64,000 nucleotides of DNA from Escherichia phage JY01. Location: the sequence record OR995200.1; one strand, 5' to 3'. Both the position numbers and the translations under genes were made by a program. Shown piece after piece: positions 5,007 through 62,654 of this stretch. Under the pieces are notes generated by a model that saw only the letters and a list, made by a program, of their open reading frames with translations, had not been told where the DNA came from and made no database searches. The stretch's first letter is position 1. Every line of letters starts with the position of its first letter.

Positions 5007-5024
5007 TAAAGGGCCGAAGCCCTT
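5007..5024 (-). other. UUCG-tetraloop hairpin at the a-gt 3' end
   Basis: Minus strand AAAGGGC-UUCG-GCCCUUU overlapping the a-gt stop codon. Confidence 0.55.
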
Positions 5025-6226
5025 TATTTTGTAATAATGTCAAACTGTTCTTTAAAACAGAAGCTTGAATCTTGATGCTGATACAAAAATTCATAAGCTT
5101 TTTCACGTTCGCGGTCATAAAGAGCTCGGTCAGATGACAGTTCTTTAATACGTTCAAATGTTGATTCCATATCATTTTCATCAAACCAAATGATACCGCT
5201 ATCATGCGAGGTCAAAGGAGTATTATCAACACGGAATTTTAAATTTTCGCCAGTAGATTTCCAAAATACCGGAATTGTTCCACATGCACCAAGCTCGAGA
5301 TGAGTATATTCTAAAGAACGTTGTAGATATTTTTTATCCAACTTACTCAACTGATAACCAAAACCGGATTTACTCATACGTTCAAGCATTTCGCTATTTA
5401 CATAACGGTCAAGAATTTGCGTTGGCAAATTAGGAGCAATTTTAATTTGGTCTACTTGATGAAGACGATAATACTCGTATGGAATTCCTTTTTCTTTAAT
5501 AGGAATGAACGCTGGAGAACGTTCCAGACCTTCCATAATAGTACTTAGTCCTGCAGGTTTAAGATGTTTTTCATGAAAATCAAACATCTGATAAAAACCT
5601 TTCCATGTAGTCGTACGACCAATCCAACGGTTAACATTCATGTTAACTTCAGAAACATCTTTCCAGTAGGTTGACCGAACCTTCGCAATATCCATAGGAG
5701 GCTGAAAGTTATATACTGTCGGTGCTTCTTCAATATCATCAAACAGAGAAACAGTTTCTGGATACCATTCTTTCATCAGAACTTTATTAAAATCGCCATT
5801 ATCAGAATGGCTAAAAATAACATCAGCTCGACGAACAGTTTCTTCTAATCCCAAATTTCGACGCAAAGAAAGAGAAGAATGGTCATGCTGATAAACTACA
5901 ACACGAACAGAAGGTTTAATGTTATCAATAATTTTTTTATAGTTATTAATAGTGTCTTCTTCAACCGAAGTAGCAGGAACTGAATTGATAATTAGAATAT
6001 CACAATCATTTACCAGCTTAAGTGTTTTATCGTATTCTTTTGCCAATAAAACCGGAATTGAAAATGATTTATAATCATGCGCACAATTACGAGTAAATGA
6101 TTTATCTTTAGCATAAACCAAAGTTACTTCATGACCATTTTTAATAAACCAATCACGTTGCTCAAGAGAAAATTTAGTTACACCACAACCTTCAAGACCT
6201 CGAGCCATAAAAATACATACTTTCAT
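5024..6226 (-). CDS. a-gt: DNA alpha-glucosyltransferase
   Basis: 400-aa ORF, sequence recognised as T4 alpha-gt (…CIFMARGLEGCGVTKFSLEQRDWF…). Confidence 0.85.
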   Translation of the reverse strand: MKVCIFMARGLEGCGVTKFSLEQRDWFIKNGHEVTLVYAKDKSFTRNCAHDYKSFSIPVLLAKEYDKTLKLVNDCDILIINSVPATSVEEDTINNYKKIIDNIKPSVRVVVYQHDHSSLSLRRNLGLEETVRRADVIFSHSDNGDFNKVLMKEWYPETVSLFDDIEEAPTVYNFQPPMDIAKVRSTYWKDVSEVNMNVNRWIGRTTTWKGFYQMFDFHEKHLKPAGLSTIMEGLERSPAFIPIKEKGIPYEYYRLHQVDQIKIAPNLPTQILDRYVNSEMLERMSKSGFGYQLSKLDKKYLQRSLEYTHLELGACGTIPVFWKSTGENLKFRVDNTPLTSHDSGIIWFDENDMESTFERIKELSSDRALYDREREKAYEFLYQHQDSSFCFKEQFDIITK

Positions 6227-6276: not shown

Positions 6277-6296
6277 ATAGGAGCCGAAGCTCCTAT
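6277..6296 (-). other. UUCG-tetraloop hairpin upstream of the a-gt middle promoter
   Basis: Minus strand AUAGGAGC-UUCG-GCUCCUAU, 8-bp stem. Confidence 0.55.
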
Positions 6297-17479: not shown

Positions 17480-17509
17480 ATTATACCACATCCTTGTGGC
17501 GAAGTAAAC
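17480..17509 (-). promoter_or_regulatory. Early promoter
   Basis: Minus strand: GTTTAC, 17 nt, tgtgGTATAAT; upstream of 16450..17451. Confidence 0.6.
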
Positions 17510-20407: not shown

Positions 20408-20433
20408 TTTCTGTTCCTCCGTAGTTGATAGTT

Positions 20434-20465
20434 GTATAGTACCACAGAGGAACAGTCTTGTAAAC
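20434..20465 (-). promoter_or_regulatory. Early promoter with conserved 5'-UTR module
   Basis: Minus strand: GTTTAC, 17 nt, tgtgGTACTATAC, then AACTATCAACTAC GGAGG ATG. Confidence 0.6.
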
Positions 20466-21929: not shown

Positions 21930-21955
21930 ATAAAAAAGGGAGCCCGAAGGCTCCC
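21930..21955 (-). terminator. Rho-independent terminator after the nucleotidyltransferase gene
   Basis: Minus strand GGGAGCC-UUCG-GGCUCCC followed by UUUUUUA. Confidence 0.65.
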
Positions 21956-21957
21956 TA

Positions 21958-23959: not shown

Positions 23960-24514
23960 TCACTTTGAAATCATAGTTGGAATGACAGAATCAAGATAAG
24001 TCTTTAGTGCAATAGCTTCGTCTTTGGTAAATGTGACAATATGTGATCGAAAATCGTCAATTTGACGAATAGATACTATATCTCCCTCTTCATAGCATTT
24101 TGAAACATTTAAAATAGTTTCATCATTCTGATTACAGGAGTTAGTAATAATAGCATTACATTTTTTAAACCATTTTAAATTATGTTTTCTTTTAGTAGAA
24201 TCATAAAAATATTTAATGTTAGTTATAAAATTATCCCAATTATTAATTGATAAGCACATTGACTCGCTTTTAATATTAAATCCTGGGCATGAAGAATAAA
24301 AATGAATTTTATGCTCATCATTAATGCTTACAATTTTATCAGTGTAAGCATATTCAATTTGGGTTAAATGAACAATTTCACTAGACGTAAAATATAACAT
24401 ATCATCTTCTTGCGTCAAACGATACATGTTATTTACTTTTTCTATAGCCAATTCACCAAAAAGCACACTATCTTCTAATACTAATCGTTTCATATTAATC
24501 CTTTTTATTGGCAT
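23960..24514 (-). CDS. Hypothetical protein, paralogue of 23432..23953
   Basis: 184-aa ORF sharing the C-terminal motif. Confidence 0.5.
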   Translation of the reverse strand: MPIKRINMKRLVLEDSVLFGELAIEKVNNMYRLTQEDDMLYFTSSEIVHLTQIEYAYTDKIVSINDEHKIHFYSSCPGFNIKSESMCLSINNWDNFITNIKYFYDSTKRKHNLKWFKKCNAIITNSCNQNDETILNVSKCYEEGDIVSIRQIDDFRSHIVTFTKDEAIALKTYLDSVIPTMISK

Positions 24515-24773
24515 GAATTTGTTCTAAAATTTTAGAGTATTCCTTTGTATCAGATTTACGTACAATCGATACACTATACGGCATACTATCGGTGTCTTTT
24601 ATAAAGCGTTCCAAATGACATTCTAATAAAATTTCTGGATTATAAATCGTGTACATCAAATTACCTGTTGCTCCACGATATTGACAGATTTCTACTGATT
24701 GAACACCATTCCATAATTTTGTTAAGACCAAATCACCTACTTCTAATTTAGGAAAGCCCATGTTATTCACCAA
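24495..24773 (-). CDS. Hypothetical protein
   Basis: 92-aa ORF. Confidence 0.45.
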   Translation of the reverse strand: MVNNMGFPKLEVGDLVLTKLWNGVQSVEICQYRGATGNLMYTIYNPEILLECHLERFIKDTDSMPYSVSIVRKSDTKEYSKILEQIHANKKD

Positions 24774-24948
24774 TTAAAGTTTCAATATAAGAATCAAGAT
24801 TTACTTTAGCTTCTTCCATAAGAGTTTTGTATTTAATCTTGTTGGCATGTCCGGAGAAAGCTGATTCATCAATAATTGTTGATGTATGAACAGCTTTACT
24901 ATACGTCTCAATTAATTCTCTTAATTTAAAAGCCTGCTCACTTGTCAT
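24763..24948 (-). CDS. Hypothetical protein
   Basis: 61-aa ORF; start overlaps the stop of an upstream 34-codon ORF (ATGTAATG). Confidence 0.4.
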   Translation of the reverse strand: MTSEQAFKLRELIETYSKAVHTSTIIDESAFSGHANKIKYKTLMEEAKVNLDSYIETLIGE

Positions 24949-25080
24949 TACATACTCCTTTGAATAATATCAATAATGTTGTTCACCAAATTATAAGTAA
25001 ACATTGGGTAATTATATTGAATCATCACATACACAACAAACAAAACTTTCATTCTCTTCTCCTTGACAGTTGGCAAGATT

Positions 25081-25110
25081 ACTATACCATAATCTTGCCA
25101 ACTTGTAAAC
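25081..25110 (-). promoter_or_regulatory. Early promoter with -10 inside a perfect 12-bp inverted repeat
   Basis: Minus strand: GTTTAC, aa, GTTGGCAAGATT atggtatagt AATCTTGCCAAC. Confidence 0.5.
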
Positions 25111-25275
25111 CATTAAATGACGTTTTCGATAAAATTCTGAAGCTTTGTATGAGCATCAACCATGATTTTCAATTCTTCTTTAGCGAAAGCTGTGCCTCTT
25201 TCACGAGAAGAGCATTCATAGTCAGAAACTGCATTAGCATATTCTTCAATTAGTTTCATTAAAAACATCTGCTTT

Positions 25276-25470
25276 TCAGTTTTCATTATTCCACCTAATC
25301 ATTTCAAGATATTGAACTAACTTAGCTTTAGATTTATCCAAATCCTTTTTAGCTGTTTCTATACCGTCGTATGAATATCCTTCACAATGCTCAACTGCTA
25401 ATTGATATGAATCTATTTCAATATCACGTGCTAATTTAATGATTTTTTCAAACTGTTCATGTGTTAGCAT
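25276..25470 (-). CDS. Hypothetical protein
   Basis: 64-aa ORF. Confidence 0.4.
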   Translation of the reverse strand: MLTHEQFEKIIKLARDIEIDSYQLAVEHCEGYSYDGIETAKKDLDKSKAKLVQYLEMIRWNNEN

Positions 25471-25931: not shown

Positions 25932-25955
25932 GAAAAAAGTCTCCCGAAGGAGACT
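25932..25955 (-). terminator. Rho-independent terminator
   Basis: Minus strand AGUCUCC-UUCG-GGAGACU followed by UUUUUU, then an early promoter. Confidence 0.65.
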
Positions 25956-30061: not shown

Positions 30062-30088
30062 GTTGTTCTCCTCTTAACTGATAGAAAA

Positions 30089-30118
30089 ATTATACCACAG
30101 TCAAGAGGAAAAGTAAAC
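30089..30118 (-). promoter_or_regulatory. Early promoter for regB
   Basis: Minus strand: GTTTAC, 17 nt, tgtgGTATAAT, about 28 nt upstream of regB ATG. Confidence 0.65.
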
Positions 30119-32258: not shown

Positions 32259-32732
32259 TTATTTGAACGATTTAACGTACTGAATAGAACCCTTACTATT
32301 CACAAAGGCAATTTTACCATTTTTATTATACATGGTAGCAGTACGCTGATAACCATAGGTTTGTTTACCAGATTGATAACCAACTAATGCAAAATTATCT
32401 TCACCCATTTTATTCTGTTTAGCGCGAATGCGTTCATGACCATGTGCCATAAGAACCTTAGCATCACCAGTTGCAATGGATCGACGAGTTTTTTCATCTT
32501 CAACTGCATTAACAAAGTCGTCAAATGAATCAAATTTAGCATGAGATTTATTATACAATTTTCCATCTACTGCATAATTATATCCCTGTACATCCATCTC
32601 AACTTCTGTACCATCATCCAATACAGCAGTAATTTTTTGACCTTTTTTAAATTTCAAAAGATCAGTAAAAGATTCAGCAATAATTTGAGAATTAATAGCT
32701 GCTTCAGTGATAAATTCTTGATATGTTTTCAT
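32259..32732 (-). CDS. Internal-protein-like head protein with capsid-targeting leader
   Basis: 157-aa ORF starting MKTYQEFITEA, the T4 internal-protein leader type; late promoter TATAAATA about 35 nt upstream. Confidence 0.6.
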   Translation of the reverse strand: MKTYQEFITEAAINSQIIAESFTDLLKFKKGQKITAVLDDGTEVEMDVQGYNYAVDGKLYNKSHAKFDSFDDFVNAVEDEKTRRSIATGDAKVLMAHGHERIRAKQNKMGEDNFALVGYQSGKQTYGYQRTATMYNKNGKIAFVNSKGSIQYVKSFK

Positions 32733-32741
32733 GTGTTTCCT

Positions 32742-33158
32742 TTAAATGTAAATATTTTTACCGTAGTATTTATACCAGTGTGGCTTCATTAAAATTTTTT
32801 CATCGAGTCGTTGTTGACTCAATTTAATAGCTGATTTGCATGGATTATAATCATTTTTCCATTCTGCTGGAATATCGCTGATGTCAGGAACTTCAGTATC
32901 TTTTATATTGAACCCACGTTTTAAGCATTCCGTTATAATGTCTGATTGACGCTTTCGCAAAAATTCTAACTTATCGTAAAAGAACGTAACATGACCAGAG
33001 CCTAAAATAAACTCGGAAGATATTTTAAAATCTTTAACCCGCTTACCATTTGCCACATGTTTACGAACTATACCAAAAACGCGTGGCAATTCACGGTATT
33101 CTGCGATTAAATGTTGATCAGCAAGTTCAGATACTAAAGTCAAATTAATACGAGTCAT
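32742..33158 (-). CDS. denV: Endonuclease V (pyrimidine-dimer DNA glycosylase) DenV
   Basis: 138-aa [20 protein letters not shown]…; recognised as T4 DenV but visibly diverged. Confidence 0.9.
32767..32774 (-). promoter_or_regulatory. Late promoter (gp55-type TATAAATA)
   Basis: TATAAATA on minus strand about 35 nt upstream of the internal-protein-like gene at 32732. Confidence 0.65.
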
Positions 33159-33182
33159 TTTATCCCTCCAAGTAACTGTGAA

Positions 33183-33213
33183 TATACTATCACAATTCTA
33201 GAAGAAAGTAAAC
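33183..33213 (-). promoter_or_regulatory. Early promoter for denV
   Basis: Minus strand: GTTTAC, 17 nt, tgtgATAGTATAT; SD GGAGGG before denV ATG. Confidence 0.55.
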
Positions 33214-36632: not shown

Positions 36633-36674
36633 AGTATTTCCTTAGGTTGATTAGAAATTAAAATCTGCAGAAGA

Positions 36675-36704
36675 ATTATATCATGCTACTTAAGAGATGT
36701 AAAC
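36675..36704 (-). promoter_or_regulatory. Early promoter
   Basis: Minus strand: GTTTAC, 18 nt, TATAAT; upstream of 36039..36632. Confidence 0.5.
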
Positions 36705-37194
36705 TATTTTTAATTTTACAAATTCGTTCAGCTTCTTCAACAGCGGCAGTGATAATGCTTTTAGCTATAGGAGTACTAATACTAGTAGCTTTTACACTTA
36801 ACACGATTTCTTTATCTTTACCAGGCCAACCCCACGATTTTTCACCATGGGTGCCTTTAATTACAGCAGACACCTCAAGTGAGCATCCATTATCGCATGT
36901 TTTTACATTAACAACCCAAGTGTCACTTTTCTCAACCGGTTTATCCCAGTAAATATTAAGAATACGTGGAACATCAAATTTAGCAGGGCAAATCTTAACC
37001 GTAAGACCTTCGCTTTCTAGCCAATTAATAAGAGGGCGTTCATACATGCGGCGATGTGGGCTTTGAACTCGACAAGCTTTGTACCCATTGCTTGCGGCTT
37101 CACTAAGCTCTTCTAATACCTGCTTTTGCATTATTGATAAGATACCATCAAAAGATTTTTCGGAAGTTTCATTCAGTTCGGTATAAAGAGACAT
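36676..37194 (-). CDS. Hypothetical protein
   Basis: Track ORF trimmed to MSLYTELNET, which is preceded by GAGGAAA. Confidence 0.5.
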   Translation of the reverse strand: MSLYTELNETSEKSFDGILSIMQKQVLEELSEAASNGYKACRVQSPHRRMYERPLINWLESEGLTVKICPAKFDVPRILNIYWDKPVEKSDTWVVNVKTCDNGCSLEVSAVIKGTHGEKSWGWPGKDKEIVLSVKATSISTPIAKSIITAAVEEAERICKIKNSLHLLSSMI

Positions 37195-37211
37195 AACAGT
37201 TTTCCTCAAAT

Positions 37212-37250
37212 TATAGGCTCATAATATCTCAATCATGAGCCTATGTAAAC
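37212..37250 (-). promoter_or_regulatory. Early promoter with -10 region bracketed by inverted repeat
   Basis: Minus strand: GTTTAC, ATAGGCTCAT gattgagATATTAT GAGCCTAT. Confidence 0.5.
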
Positions 37251-37514
37251 TTATTTCATATTATTGAAATATTCTTCTGCGATTTCGTCGTTATCATGGT
37301 AAACTTTAGAAGACAGTTTAACATAACCTTCAGCAGTGAACATGTTAATCACAACCTTTACAGTATACCACTGACCATCTTCATTACCCATTACTGCATA
37401 GGTTTCAAACATCGGATGATCAGGACCGATAACTTTAATATCATTCACCGTACGACCGAAATCTTCTGAAACACATTTCATAAAGAAGTTGAACAGTTCA
37501 CCGTAATTATCCAT
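37251..37514 (-). CDS. Hypothetical protein
   Basis: Track ORF trimmed to MDNYGELF; upstream GGAG belongs to the promoter/UTR module. Confidence 0.45.
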   Translation of the reverse strand: MDNYGELFNFFMKCVSEDFGRTVNDIKVIGPDHPMFETYAVMGNEDGQWYTVKVVINMFTAEGYVKLSSKVYHDNDEIAEEYFNNMK

Positions 37515-37715: not shown

Positions 37716-37747
37716 TACCAAAAAGCCCCAACCTTTCGGCTAGGGCT
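37716..37747 (-). terminator. Rho-independent terminator downstream of the internal-protein-like gene
   Basis: Minus strand stem AGCCCUAGCC/GGUUGGGGCU with GAAA loop followed by UUUU. Confidence 0.6.
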
Positions 37748-41285: not shown

Positions 41286-41471
41286 TTACTCACCTTTAGA
41301 AATTTTATCCATAACGATAGCAATTAAACCAATTAAAAATGCTACTACAAGTGAAAATACATTTTCTGCTGTAGTTAATAATCCGCATATAAATCCAACA
41401 AACATTGAAAAACTAAAAGCGGAAGCAGAAATTGCAATAGCAACATTTCGAATTAATTCACAGCGTTTCAT
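41286..41471 (-). CDS. Hypothetical small membrane protein
   Basis: Track ORF trimmed to MKRCELIRNV; hydrophobic; upstream extension is the promoter/UTR module. Confidence 0.4.
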   Translation of the reverse strand: MKRCELIRNVAIAISASAFSFSMFVGFICGLLTTAENVFSLVVAFLIGLIAIVMDKISKGE

Positions 41472-41496
41472 TTTATTCTCCTCAGTAGTTGATAGG

Positions 41497-41529
41497 GTAA
41501 TAGTATCACTACTAAAACCCCGTGTAAAC
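41497..41529 (-). promoter_or_regulatory. Early promoter with conserved UP/5'-UTR module
   Basis: Minus strand: tttcacaaagtt, GTTTAC, 17 nt, gtgATACTATTAC, CCTATCAACTACTGAGGAG. Confidence 0.6.
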
Positions 41530-41541
41530 AACTTTGTGAAA

Positions 41542-41799
41542 TTATTTTAAATCTTCTAATCGTTTCTTCATCTTAGAACCATTTTTAGCGATTTCTCCTG
41601 CGTCAGAGCATAATGCTAAAAGTGCTTTAACTTTAGTTTGGTCTCCTTTAAAAGACGAAGGATCGACTGCAGCAGCAAGTTCTTTAATACGAGAGAAAAG
41701 ACGCTCAGCTTCAGCTAAAGCCATTCCAAGCTTTACTTCCATACCATGAGAAGATTCAGTGATAATAGTTTCTGTAGCAAACTCTTTATAAGTTTTCAT
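41542..41799 (-). CDS. Internal protein I-like (ipI position, capsid-targeting leader)
   Basis: 85-aa ORF starting MKTYKEFATE, immediately upstream of 57B as T4 ipI is. Confidence 0.6.
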   Translation of the reverse strand: MKTYKEFATETIITESSHGMEVKLGMALAEAERLFSRIKELAAAVDPSSFKGDQTKVKALLALCSDAGEIAKNGSKMKKRLEDLK

Positions 41800-41821
41800 T
41801 TTATTTTTCCTAATTAATTTT

Positions 41822-41860
41822 GATGAGGTAATAGTATCACTACCTCATCAGTGTGTAAAC
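41822..41860 (-). promoter_or_regulatory. Early promoter for ipI-like gene, -10 in hairpin loop
   Basis: Minus strand: GTTTAC, acac, TGATGAGGTA gtgatactat TACCTCATCA. Confidence 0.55.
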
Positions 41861-41872
41861 AACTTTGTGAAA

Positions 41873-42569
<697 letters not shown>

Positions 42570-50421: not shown

Positions 50422-53400
50422 CAGTAAAAGCGCCTTCAGTCACTAGTCTCAGAATTTCCAAGTTATCCGCTAATCAGGTGCAAGTACGCTGGGATGACGT
50501 TGGTGCTAATTTCTACTACTTTGTAGAAATCGCTGAGACAAAATCAAACTCGGGAGAAAATCTCCCGAGTAATCAATATCGTTGGATTAATTTAGGATAT
50601 ACAGCAAATAATAGTTTCTTTTTTGATGATGCTGATCCACTGACATCATATGTTATTAGAGTAGCTACAGCTGCGCAAGATTTTGAGCAGTCTGATTGGA
50701 TTTATACAGAAGAGTTTGAAACTTTTGCTACGAATGCTTACACATTTCAAAATATGATTGAAATGCAATTAGCTAATAAATTCATTCAGGAAAAGTTCAC
50801 TCTTAATAATTCTAATTATGTCAATTTCAATAATGACACAATAATGGCTGCGTTGATGAATGAATCATTTCAGTTCAGCCCATCGTATGCTGATGTCTCA
50901 TCAATCAGTAATTTTATTATTGGTGAAAACGAGTATCATGAAATACAAGGTTCTATTCAGCAAGTATGTAAGGATATTAACCGAGCTTATTTGATGGAAT
51001 CAGAAGGGATTCTATATCTTTTTGAGCGTTATCAACCCGTAGTTAAAGTATCCAATGATAAAGGACAAACCTGGAAAGCTGTAAAGCTCTTCAATGACCG
51101 TGTAGGATATCCTTTATCTAAGACTGTATATTACCAATCTGCAAACACAACATACGTTCTAGGATACGATAAGATTTTCTATGGCCGTAAATCGACTGAC
51201 GTTAGATGGTCAGCAGATGATGTCAGATTCAGTTCACAGGATATAACATTTGCTAAATTAGGAGACCAACTTCATTTAGGATTCGATGTTGAAATCTTCG
51301 CTACTTATGCGACTTTACCAGCGAATGTATACCGTATAGCTGAAGCCATTACTTGTACGGATGATTATATCTATGTTGTTGCCAGAGATAAAGTTAGATA
51401 TATAAAAACGAGTAATGCACCTATAGATTCTGACCCGTTATCACCAACATACTCGGAAAGACTTTTTGAACCTGATACAATGACTATAACTGGAAATCCT
51501 AAAGCTGTATGCTATAAAATGGATTCTATTGGTGATAAAGTTTTTGCTCTTATTATTGGTGAAGTTGAAACATTAAATGCTAATCCTAGAACATCAAAAA
51601 TAATTGATTCCGCTGATAAAGGAATATATGTTTTAAATCATGATGAAAAAACATGGAAAAGAGTTTTTGGTAATACCGAAGAAGAAAGAAGACGTATTCA
51701 ACCCGGATATGCGAATATGTCAACTGATGGTAAATTAGTTTCTCTGTCTTCGAGTAATTTTAAATTTTTAAGTGATAACGTTGTTAATGACCCTGAAACT
51801 GCTGTAAAATACCAGTTAATCGGTGCTGTTAAATATGAATTTCCTCGCGAATGGTTAGCTGATAAACATTATCATATGATGGCGTTTATAGCGGATGAAA
51901 AATCTGATTGGGAGACTTTTACTCCTCAACCGATGAAATACTACGCAGAACCGTTCTTTAATTGGTCTAAAAAATCTAACACTCGATGTTGGATAAACAA
52001 CTCTGATAAAGCTGTTGTAGTTTATGCAGATTTGAAATACACCAAAGTTATTGAAAATATTCCAGAAACGTCACCAGATAGATTAGTGCATGAATACTGG
52101 GATGATGGCGATTGCACTATAGTAATGCCAAATGTTAAATTCACCGGATTTAAAAAATACGCATCAGGAATGCTTTTCTACAAATCTTCTGGCGAAATAA
52201 TTTCTTATTATGATTTTAACTATCGTGTGAGAGATACAGTAGAAATTATTTGGAAGCCAACTGAAGTATTTTTAAAAGCATTTTTACAAAACCAAGAGCG
52301 CGAAACTCCTTGGTCACCAGAAGAAGAACGTGGATTAGCTGACCCTGATTTAAGACCATTGATTGGCACAATGATGCCTGATTCTTATTTGTTACAAGAT
52401 TCTAATTTTGAGGCATTTTGTGAAGCATATATTCAATATCTTTCTGACGGATATGGAACTCAGTATAACAATTTACGAAATTTAATTCGTAACCAATATC
52501 CACGAGAAGAGCATGCGTGGGAATATTTATGGTCAGAAATATATAAAAGAAACATTTATTTAAATGCTGACAAACGCGATGCTGTTGCAAGATTTTTTGA
52601 ATCACGTAGCTATGATTTTTATTCTACTAAAGGAATTGAAGCATCATATAAATTTCTTTTTAAAGTTCTTTATAATGAAGAAGTTGAAATTGAAATTGAA
52701 TCGGGAGCAGGTACTGAATATGATGTAATCATTCAATCTGATTCTCTTACAGAAGATTTAGTAGGACAAACTATCTATACTGCAACCGGAAGATGTAATG
52801 TTACTTATATAGAAAGAAGTTATTCTAATGGTAAATTGCAATGGACCGTGACTATACATAATCTTTTGGGGCGGTTAATAGCAGGACAAGAAGTTAAAGC
52901 AGAAAGACTTCCGGGCTTTGAAGGCGAAATTATTCGTGGGGTTAAAGGAAAAGATTTGCTTCAAAATAATATAGACTATATTAATAGAAGTAGATCATAT
53001 TATGTAATGAAAATTAAATCCAATTTACCTTCTTCTCGTTGGAAATCTGACGTTATTCGTTTTGTTCATCCAGTAGGATTTGGATTTATAGCAATTACCC
53101 TTTTAACGATGTTTATTAATGTTGGTTTAACTCTTAAACACACAGAGACTATAATTAATAAATACAAAAACTATAAATGGGATTCTGGATTGCCTACTGA
53201 ATATGCTGATAGAGTAGCTAAATTGACTCCAACTGGTGAAATTGAGCATGATTCGGTAACAGGCGAAGCAATTTATGAGCCTGGCCCAATGGCTGGTGTA
53301 GAATATCCTCTTCCTGATGACTATAATGCTGAAAATAACAATTCAATATTTCAAGGTCAATTGCCGTCTGAACGACGTAAATTAATGAGTCCTTTATTTG

Positions 53401-57907: not shown

Positions 57908-59454
57908 GTAACAATACATATCAGCACGTATCAAATGAATCAAAATACGTTAAATTCGATCCTGCAGGATCGAATTTTCCTGGCACTGTCACGACAGTGC
58001 AGTCAGCATTATCAAAAATAAGTAATATCGGCGTAAATGGTATTCCTGATGCAACTATGGAAGTTAAAGGAATAGCAATGATTGCATCGGAGCAAGAGGT
58101 TTTAGATGGAACTAATAATTCTAAAATCGTTACACCAGCTACATTAGCAACAAGATTATTGTATCCAAATGCTACTGAAACTAAATATGGATTAACACGC
58201 TATTCAACAAATGAAGAAACTTTAGAAGGCTCAGATAATAATTCATCAATAACGCCACAAAAACTGAAATACCATACTGACGATGTATTCCAAAATAGGT
58301 ATTCATCTGAATCATCAAATGGAGTTATTAAAATATCATCTACTCCTGCGGCTTTGGCTGGAGTAGATGATACTACGGCGATGACTCCGTTGAAAACCCA
58401 AAAACTCGCAATAAAATTAATTTCGCAAATAGCTCCTTCAGAAGACACAGCATCAGAATCTGTTAGAGGTGTAGTTCAGTTATCAACTGTCGCTCAAACT
58501 CGTCAAGGAACTCTCCGCGAAGGATATGCAATTTCTCCGTATACCTTTATGAATTCTGTTGCAACACAAGAATATAAGGGTGTTATACGTTTAGGAACAC
58601 AATCAGAAATTAACAGTAATTTGGGAGATGTTGCAGTAACAGGTGAAACATTAAATGGTCGAGGAGCTACCGGTTCTATGCGTGGGGTAGTAAAATTAAC
58701 GACGCAAGCCGGTATTGCCCCTGAAGGTGATAGCTCTGGAGCATTAGCATGGAACGCAGATGTAATTAATACTCGCGGTGGACAAACTATTAATGGTTCT
58801 TTAAATTTAGATCATTTAACAGCAAATGGAATTTGGTCGCGCGGCGGAATGTGGAAAAATGGCGATCAACCTGTTGCCACTGAAAGATATGCGTCCGAAA
58901 GGGTTCCAGTTGGAACTATTATGATGTTTGCTGGAGATTCAGCTCCTCCTGGTTGGATTATGTGCCACGGCGGAACCGTGTCAGGAGATCAATATCCTGA
59001 TTATAGAAACACGGTTGGAACAAGATTTGGTGGTGATTGGAATAACCCTGGCATTCCTGATATGCGAGGTCTTTTCGTCAGAGGAGCTGGCACGGGCGGT
59101 CATATTTTAAATCAACGAGGGCAAGATGGTTACGGGAAGGATAGACTTGGTGTAGGATGTGACGGAATGCATGTTGGCGGTGTTCAAGCACAACAGATGT
59201 CATACCATAAACATGCTGGTGGTTGGGGAGAATACCAAAGACATGAAGCTCCATTTGGCGCGTCCGTTTATCAAGGATATCTTGGAACTAGAAAATATGC
59301 CGACTGGGATAATGCTTCATACTTCACTAATGATGGATTTGAATTAGGTGGACCGAGAGATGCCCTTGGTACACTTAATCGTGAAGGATTAATTGGTTAT
59401 GAAACTAGACCATGGAATATATCATTAAACTATATTATTAAAATTCATTACTAA
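57904..59454 (+). CDS. 12: Short tail fibre protein gp12
   Basis: 516-aa ORF with repetitive N-terminal and middle segments and His-rich C-terminal domain, in the gp12 position. Confidence 0.9.

Positions 59455-60952: not shown

Positions 60953-62654
<1,702 letters not shown>

Follow-up and report, generated by a model that had tools for sequence, protein, structure and literature searches.

The closest described relatives of the elements treated here are the promoter-early stem-loops (PeSLs) of T4-type phages, in which an early promoter lies together with a stem-loop between the stop codon of one gene and the Shine-Dalgarno (SD) sequence of the next (Arbiol et al. 2010, PMC2839356; Comeau et al. 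2014, PMC4122927). PeSLs fall into five subclasses according to the position of the stem-loop, one of them overlapping the -10 element, and G-T pairs are seen in the stems (PMC2839356); the cassettes occur in hyperplastic regions, next to genes in which close relatives differ, with proposed roles as terminators or attenuators and in cassette shuffling (PMC2839356, PMC4122927), and the T4/PST early promoter consensus is given as TTTACW-N17-TAYWAT (PMC4122927). In this work we analyze a 64,000-nucleotide (nt) stretch of Escherichia phage JY01 (sequence record OR995200.1; the whole stretch is hereafter called the window) and, within it, three inverted repeats, each placed around the -10 element of a GTTTAC-N18-TAnnnT promoter on the minus (coding) strand. 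Their architecture is that of the published PeSL, and the finding is real but not new.

Inverted repeats centered on a promoter element are also known from phage N4, in whose virion RNA polymerase promoters an extruded DNA hairpin of conserved sequence is the recognition element for a dedicated polymerase; here, in contrast, the promoters are ordinary sigma-70 ones with non-conserved arms, and the wobble pairs speak for RNA. The intercistronic (UUCG or otherwise intrinsic) terminators of T4 occupy the same kind of place as our repeats, between a stop codon and the early promoter that follows, but they lie upstream of the -35 and have GC-rich stems, 4-nt loops and a T-run, whereas the repeats studied here overlap the promoter, have loops of 8-12 nt dictated by the -10, and lack a T-run. 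Promoter-bearing translational hairpins are listed for T4 in a review (PMC3014915) only for e, soc, 49 and I-TevI, all with late promoters, in addition to implicated homing-endonuclease cases; in these genes the promoter is internal to the hairpin, the gene's own transcripts lack the 5' arm, and only read-through RNA folds. Our three loci share this internal-promoter geometry, since the whole 5' arm precedes the -10 and the predicted starts. They differ from e, soc, 49 and I-TevI in that the SD stands outside the stem, its accessibility being unchanged, and in that the promoters are early and sigma-70-type (-35 GTTTAC and a sigma-70 -10), not late promoters (TATAAATA) which delay translation until late infection; no TATAAATA was found in the three intergenic regions.

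The comparison with PeSLs is closer. The promoters are of the sigma-70 type (GTTTAC-N18-TATAGT, GTTTAC-N18-TACTAT and GTTTAC-N18-TATTAT at loci 1, 2 and 3, respectively) with an AT-rich upstream region (76-88% A+T in the preceding 25 nt); loci 2 and 3 match TTTACW-N17-TAYWAT exactly, and the -10 of locus 1, TATAGT, deviates at one position. Perfect arms of 14, 10 and 10 base pairs (bp) surround the -10 elements and fold with z-scores below -5, and each element is intergenic, with a stop codon upstream and the SD and start codon downstream. Gene replacement is found as well: the genes downstream of locus 3 (172 amino acids (aa), 36649-37199 region) and locus 2 (85 aa, 41547-41776 region) are non-homologous replacements of T4 e.7 and ipI, the homology breakpoints relative to T4 falling at the promoter/hairpin cassettes; T4 ipII and ipIII are absent from the window (32259-33169 region), the promoter after gene e (promoter 33213, which marks this loss) now driving denV; and chimeric or degraded cassettes occur in two relatives, L035 and L023 (L-numbers designate the compared phage sequences, L004 being T4, AF158101; divergent relatives were fetched from IMG/VR). 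Locus 1 is not at a T4 breakpoint, the nearest one lying about 130 nt downstream, at 24937. The differences are modest. In the 2014 paper, T4/PST stem-loops are described just upstream of the promoter (PMC4122927), whereas about half of the early promoters of the window, and of T4 itself, carry a form that straddles the -10; the stems are AU-rich, unrelated in sequence and without a U-tract, and are not of the G-run/C-run type; and neither the SD-masking subclass nor the dependence on stop-codon distance reported below is described in the portions of the PeSL literature at hand (PMC2839356, PMC4122927).

The window belongs to a Tequatrovirus (T4-like) and corresponds to approximately 32-96 kb of T4 in an alignment to AF158101. 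A 2.5-kb piece around locus 1 matched 502 phage records at 90-99.6% identity, nearly all of them Tequatrovirus, the best match being Shigella phage SfPhi01. The early genes and all three loci are on the minus strand, and on the T4 map the loci are placed at the mobD.2a | mobD.2 (locus 1), 57B | ipI (locus 2) and e.8 | e.7 (locus 3) junctions, with intergenic gaps of 60, 73 and 56 nt and upstream stop codons 2, 12 and 0 nt from the -35, respectively. A systematic scan confirmed that the repeats of the earlier note, made from the sequence of the window, are real; the arms are longer than it had noted (the perfect lengths given above), and locus 1 is the longest perfect inverted repeat of the window. 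The coordinates in the earlier note were off by one at loci 2 and 3, and the arms of locus 3 are of 10 bp rather than 8. The positions of all the elements are collected in Table 1.

Table 1. Promoter/hairpin elements at the three loci, class B promoters (see text) and canonical terminators of the window; promoter elements and transcribed bases are predicted.
Feature	Position	Strand	Remarks
Locus 1, inverted repeat	25068-25103	-	perfect arms of 14 bp, loop of 8 nt
Locus 1, -35 GTTTAC	25105-25110	-	early promoter of mobD.2 homologue; stop of upstream 57-aa open reading frame (ORF) at 25113-25115
Locus 1, 5' arm AGTTGGCAAGATTA	25090-25103	-	in promoter spacer
Locus 1, -10 TATAGT	25081-25086	-	five bases in loop (25082-25089), one in stem
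Locus 1, 3' arm TAATCTTGCCAACT	25068-25081	-	spans discriminator and first transcribed bases
Locus 1, SD AAGGAG	25059-25064	-	starts 3 nt past stem
Locus 1, ATG	25050-25052	-	34-aa mobD.2 homologue
Locus 2, inverted repeat	41821-41850	-	perfect arms of 10 bp, loop of 10 nt
Locus 2, -35 GTTTAC	41855-41860	-	between 57B (Acb1) and internal-protein-locus gene; 57B stop at 41873-41875
Locus 2, 5' arm TGATGAGGTA	41841-41850	-	
Locus 2, -10 TACTAT	41831-41836	-	inside 10-nt loop
Locus 2, 3' arm TACCTCATCA	41821-41830	-	
Locus 2, SD AGGA	41808-41811	-	
Locus 2, ATG	41797-41799	-	85-aa gene in place of T4 ipI
Locus 3, inverted repeat	37213-37244	-	perfect arms of 10 bp, loop of 12 nt
Locus 3, -35 GTTTAC	37245-37250	-	abuts stop codon of e.8 homologue (37251-37253)
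Locus 3, 5' arm ATAGGCTCAT	37235-37244	-	
Locus 3, -10 TATTAT	37221-37226	-	at junction of loop and 3' arm
Locus 3, 3' arm ATGAGCCTAT	37213-37222	-	
Locus 3, SD GAGG	37204-37207	-	
Locus 3, ATG	37192-37194	-	172-aa gene in place of T4 e.7
Class B, regB early promoter	30066-30118	-	
regB, 5' arm	30098-30112	-	in spacer, with anti-SD CCTC
regB, -10	30089-30094	-	in loop
regB, 3' arm	30066-30080	-	holds SD GAGGAG
Class B, nrdC.8 homologue promoter	20411-20465	-	
nrdC.8, arms	20441-20455, 20411-20425	-	3' arm holds SD GGAGG
Class B, promoter now driving denV	33166-33213	-	
denV, core arms	33190-33197, 33174-33181	-	bulged helix extends to SD
Canonical UUCG-loop terminator hairpin and T-run	21937-21956	-	upstream of promoter 21907, which has no straddling hairpin
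Canonical terminator hairpin	25938-25955	-	upstream of promoter 25922, which has no straddling hairpin
Canonical terminator hairpin	37724-37747	-	upstream of promoter 37587, which has no straddling hairpin

The geometry is the same at the three loci: the spacer between -35 and -10 holds the 5' arm, the loop holds the -10, and the 3' arm is essentially the discriminator and the (predicted) first transcribed bases, ending 3-9 nt before the SD; the SD and ATG follow 28-34 nt further on. At locus 1, transcription is predicted to start near 25074 (7-nt rule). The assignment as GTTTAC-type promoters with the -10 in the loop, already made in the earlier note, appears to hold, resting as it does on the T4 early-promoter consensus and on the existence of near-identical T4 orthologues; a promoter scan gave scores of 10/12 at loci 1 and 3 (the locus 1 match being TTTACA-17-TATAGT, extended by TG). 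A plus-strand candidate, TTGACA-16-TACCAT at 25063-25090, was judged a chance match, T4 having TTGGCA at that place.

The inverted repeats are non-random, far beyond what chance would give. The sense RNAs of loci 1, 2 and 3 are calculated to fold with -22.3, -17.4 and -18.1 kcal/mol (z-scores of -5.8, -5.6 and -5.4, with none of 200 shuffles as good), and the antisense strands with -20.5, -14.2 and -14.3 kcal/mol, which leaves the sense strand an advantage of 1.8-3.8 kcal/mol. Seven perfect repeats in the window have arms of 10 bp or more, compared with 2.6 in Markov shuffles, and three of the seven sit on early-promoter -10 boxes, which cover less than 1% of the window (a coincidence with a probability of about 2e-5, by hand estimate). 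The four remaining long perfect repeats (57952-57977, 58334-58372, 50548-50570 and 61486-61525, with arms of 11, 13, 10 and 10 bp) are in the plus-strand late-gene half. An Rfam scan returned only ten tRNAs, and no family overlaps the hairpins.

The straddling architecture is also much more general than the three loci, being found at about half of the early promoters. For the 13 convincing early promoters of the window, we paired each spacer with its own 5' untranslated region (5'UTR) and with the 5'UTRs of the other 12: the mean duplex energy was -13.4 kcal/mol for the native pairs versus -8.7 kcal/mol for the non-native ones (permutation p = 2e-5, and 1e-4 on re-run), and six of the 13 native pairs top their row (promoters 41860, 37250, 33213, 30118, 25110 and 20465). 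The same test gave p <5e-5 in T4 and was also significant in divergent relatives, L064 for example having p = 2e-4. Among 126 unique promoter instances, 44% reach a stem score of at least 8 and 11% one of at least 12, compared with 5.6% and 0.08% of chimeric controls; after five genomes were added, the share scoring at least 8 was 45% of 161 instances. When the position of the stem was left unrestricted, the form straddling the -10 was the commonest (49 of 81 strong stems). An IMG/VR scan for the conserved upstream motif TTTCACAAANNNGTTTACA recovered 101 distinct sequences, about half of them chance matches in unrelated contigs; the genuine promoters mostly have a long upstream leader without a straddling hairpin, and they added little to the covariation data. 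Some hairpins are placed differently: a short one at 17480-17509 (minus strand; CCACA-agga-TGTGG) lies wholly within the -35/-10 spacer, as does ACACCA-agga-TGGTGT downstream of e.8 in L049, with the same AGGA loop, and both fit the PeSL subclass whose stem-loop is between the -35 and -10 elements.

The repeats are conserved in related phages, conservation being the point on which the earlier note had staked its proposal of selection for structure; the proposal is supported, the relatives retaining the hairpin by way of compensatory changes, by G.U intermediates or with arms of unrelated sequence at the same sites. At locus 1 the arms covary in the comparison with T4, L005-L009 and L064: 98.8% of the alignment cells are paired and three pairs are changed on both sides, one of them reading G-C in the window versus A-T in T4, with G.U there in most other relatives, and a second pair is G.U in many relatives. 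The mobD.2 orthologue in L064 has arms that differ from those of locus 1, and at the orthologous site of a phage with a RegB 77% identical the arms are largely different (TTGGTAGGATTA / TAGTCCTACCAA). At locus 3, 97.4% of cells are paired and both partners of two pairs have changed, compensatory changes being present in L048 and L052/53; after e.8 in L054 there are unrelated arms, GAGGACA / TGTCCTC. The arms of locus 2 are identical in T4 and L012, with one G.U in L042; in the promoter-bearing phages the arms found around the -10 after 57B are varied (TGATGAGGTA, GGTAGGACTA, AGGTCTATAG, GTGTAGG, ATAGGGT, TAGTGT), and no such arms are present in a genome whose promoter is preceded by a UUCG terminator. 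The L035 cassette is a chimera that joins one cassette's 5' arm to the mismatched 3' arm of the neighboring cassette, and L023 retains one arm only. The chimera combines two neighboring promoters, as expected from a crossover in the loop; in the window, these promoters, at 41469-41529 and 41797-41860 (minus strand), have about 40 nt of identical upstream/-35 sequence and the -10 block GTGATACTATTACC. The T4 record has an ambiguous base N within the 5' arm of the e.8|e.7 hairpin (minus strand, about 70,330; ATAGGCTNAT), perhaps because the stem gave rise to a compression in sequencing.

The polymorphisms in the stems bear on the nucleic acid in which the structure acts. A single transition in a Watson-Crick pair yields either G.T on the sense strand, tolerated as G.U in RNA, or A.C. 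In strict ortholog families (at most three differences in arm columns, counted after the five genomes had been added), the polymorphic pairs comprise 17 G.T versus 7 A.C states (one-sided p = 0.03), or 15 versus 4 (p = 0.01) when the two outermost pairs are excluded. A count based on loose single-linkage clustering (27 versus 28, with 67 other mismatches) merged non-orthologous promoters and was discarded. Together with the folding advantage of the sense strand, this wobble asymmetry favors a structure in the sense transcript, without being decisive.

The presence of a hairpin is linked to the distance of the upstream stop codon. A strong hairpin is found in 19 of 31 families in which the stop is at most 15 nt from the -35 versus 3 of 14 otherwise (Fisher p = 0.023), and in the position-unrestricted scan the stop is nearby in 18 of 20 straddling families and distant in all four families with the hairpin upstream of the -35. 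Straddling hairpins and canonical upstream terminators are complementary in their distribution among promoters, the three canonical UUCG/T-run terminators of Table 1 all preceding promoters without a straddling hairpin. A T-run (at least five T in the next 8 nt) follows none of the 49 straddling stems, which have a mean of 1.4 T in these positions; the tails after the three flagged stems (GUCAAGGA, AAAUUAAU and AAUUUGAG) contain no U-tract; a terminator scan of the window called none of the flagged hairpins; and the ARNold annotation in MK373785 marks the equivalent of 25938-25955, not the locus 1 hairpin. With no T-run and no call from the two predictors, the classical intrinsic terminator was rejected as a description of these stems, termination of that kind appearing unlikely from what follows them. 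A literature search for T4 transcript-end maps found nothing usable. Recurrent GC-rich UUCG-tetraloop hairpins are present on the minus strand at 5007-5026, 6277-6296, 21937-21956 and 25938-25955, the last two being followed by T-runs and sitting just upstream of early promoters; these are canonical T4 intercistronic terminators.

At the three flagged loci the hairpin does not hide the ribosome binding site. The SD is not paired in the stems, and the cost of opening the region from SD to AUG is nearly the same whether a transcript is read-through or the promoter's own (the difference being 0.9, 0.1 and -0.3 kcal/mol at loci 1, 2 and 3), so that SD masking was rejected for them. Masking is found instead at the promoters of regB, nrdC.8 and denV, which form a sister class (class B), a longer-loop version (15-36 nt) of the same design in which the SD of the gene is paired to an anti-SD located in the spacer. 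The calculated cost of opening the SD in read-through RNA is +11.4, +14.3 and +10.5 kcal/mol for regB, nrdC.8 and denV, respectively; at these genes translation would proceed only from own-promoter transcripts, read-through RNA hiding the SD. The regB arms covary in L064 and L066-L068, and the stem takes a different sequence in each of three lineages (CCTCTTGACTG / CAGTTAAGAGG, CTCCTCTAGTTG / CAACTAGAGGAG and TCTCCTGTAAG / CTTACAGGAGA). The early promoter of regB is documented, and RNA structure is known to protect GGAG from RegB (PMC3014915). Class B resembles the e, soc, 49 and I-TevI hairpins in sequestering the SD, and its three members are not among the cases of that review.

Our preferred explanation, to which we assign a probability of roughly 0.6, is that the inverted repeat is the DNA image of a read-through RNA stem-loop superimposed on a T4-type early promoter, more likely an attenuator, a pause site or an exonuclease barrier. 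Since the 5' arm lies upstream of any start from the promoter, the promoter's own transcript is unable to fold into the hairpin, which would be present only in RNA that arrives from upstream promoters across a stop codon 0-12 nt before the -35. The hairpin would then belong functionally to the upstream transcription unit, as its 3' structure, and would correspond to the hairpin that stands separately, farther upstream, at other early promoters. There being only 56-73 nt between the genes, it would have been forced into the sequence-free positions of the promoter (spacer and discriminator), which would leave the -10 in the loop. Because there is no U-tract, attenuation or pausing, or else protection against 3'-to-5' exonucleases once the RNA has been processed, seems likelier than classical intrinsic termination. 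The cassettes, with their conserved promoter sequence, would also mark the borders of swapped genes, which is the published behavior of PeSLs. Of the three mechanisms that the earlier note had put forward (promoter occlusion, a dimeric regulator site and a hairpin in read-through RNA), the last is the best supported, by the G.U excess, the abutting upstream stop and the sister class with the SD in its 3' arm.

Several observations weigh against this explanation. Some strong straddling hairpins have a far upstream stop (T4 ipII, L066-L068) and some tight junctions have no hairpin (promoter 36704). The G.U over A.C excess is modest and counts states rather than phylogenetic events, an earlier and smaller strict-family data set gave 14 versus 6 (p = 0.058), and a strand-biased mutation spectrum could contribute. 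According to Ripley's work on T4, compensatory changes in palindromes can reportedly arise in one step by quasipalindrome-templated mutation, which weakens the step from covariation to selection. The effect of an AU-rich stem of 10-14 bp on an elongating polymerase is uncertain when no U-tract follows; the exonuclease-barrier role would be carried over from general E. coli mRNA decay rather than from T4 data; and the start sites and hairpin-linked 3' ends are predictions.

The original PeSL proposal takes the stem-loop for a true terminator or insulator that stops upstream polymerases, each early gene being then transcribed mainly from its own promoter. It is consistent with the complementary distribution of straddling hairpins and canonical terminators and with the finding that an RB49 PeSL211/210 stem-loop between a promoter and lacZ cut expression as much as rrnB T1 (PMC2839356). 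The stems tested in RB49 were, however, of the G-run/C-run kind, unlike the AU-rich ones found here, and the hairpin would be complete only once the polymerase has passed the promoter; with a T-run after 0 of 49 straddling stems and none called by two predictors, the proposed terminator role finds no apparent support in the sequence, and we consider it unlikely. A second possibility at the level of cassette behavior is that the repeat is a DNA signal for recombination or replication (for example, the target of a structure-specific protein) that promotes PeSL-mediated exchange, the RNA hairpin being incidental. The T4 homology breakpoints at loci 2 and 3 with their replaced downstream genes, the chimeric L035 cassette, the single arm of L023 and the crossovers mapped in the loop of an RB49 PeSL (PMC2839356) are all in keeping with it. 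Yet the arms differ between cassettes and so offer no homology, the shared homology being the promoter consensus; most natural variants of locus 1 are G.U, that is, A.C mismatches on the other strand; class B has loops of 15-36 nt and involves the SD; and the link with the upstream stop distance has no rationale at the DNA level. A recombination signal as the primary function strikes us as distinctly improbable.

Control of the promoter itself at the DNA level, by a cruciform that exposes or occludes the -10 or by a palindromic operator for a dimeric regulator, would account for perfect palindromes centered on the -10 and for the fact that the antisense strand, too, folds well in the window. 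A dimeric regulator shared by the promoters is excluded, since neither the three loci nor the orthologous sites have arms of related sequence; no half-site common to the promoters and conserved in orthologues was found at the three loci or at the orthologous sites of related phages. Occlusion by a cruciform is disfavored: the sense-strand wobble pairs that relatives tolerate would be A.C mismatches in the opposite strand, and a loop of 15-36 nt is found in many related stems. Even loops of 8-12 nt are long for cruciform extrusion, and cruciforms are a substrate of endonuclease VII, which T4 encodes (gene 49 is annotated in its genome). We thus regard DNA-level control as very improbable, and we give equally little credence to the idea that the repeats have no function and are by-products of quasipalindrome-templated mutation combined with repeated promoter-cassette recombination. 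T4 is the classic system for such mutation and some cassettes are chimeric or degraded (L035, L023), but by-products would not be expected to be at least 8-fold enriched over chimeric controls, to appear with independent, unrelated arms at the same sites in different genera, to depend on the distance of the upstream stop codon, or to be so consistently placed, with the 5' arm always in the spacer.

The surroundings of loci 1 and 2 offer some further observations. A segment of about 445 bp between mobD.1 and mobD.2 (24491-24937) is absent from T4 and contains two short ORFs on the minus strand (24495-24773 and 24763-24948). Upstream of locus 1, the ORF at 25113-25286 (minus strand) encodes 57 aa and ends 2 nt before the -35; its T4 counterpart is annotated as the 38-aa mobD.2a owing to a 1-nt indel, and the T4 copy may be frameshifted or misannotated. 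The 57B gene directly upstream of locus 2 (41873-42328, minus strand) is labeled anti-CBASS protein Acb1 in record PQ871103, and in many related phages the 57B stop overlaps the next ATG (TAAATG), with neither promoter nor hairpin.

If our preferred explanation is correct, the compact phage genome would overlay two signals on the same 40 bases, the promoter being read in the hexamers and the structure of the upstream transcript in the positions left free, which offers a concrete reason for the position of the -10 in the loop. The published terminator label of PeSL stem-loops is put in question because no stem has a U-tract, and for annotation such T4-like palindromes would be taken as PeSL-type cassettes and likely borders of cassette exchange, not as operators. 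In a group of early genes, the RNase gene regB among them, translation may vary with the promoter that gave rise to the RNA. A broader proposition, possible but doubtful at present, is that the promoter of origin decides the fate of early mRNA in general, through hairpins in T4-type early promoters that only read-through RNA contains. Were it true, the regB/nrdC.8/denV class would be silent on delayed-early or middle read-through RNA and translated from its own immediate-early promoter, the class of the flagged loci would cap the upstream message with a protective or attenuating 3' structure, and the phage would possess an early-gene counterpart of the e/soc/49/I-TevI late switch, present at about half of its early promoters and with covariation across genera.

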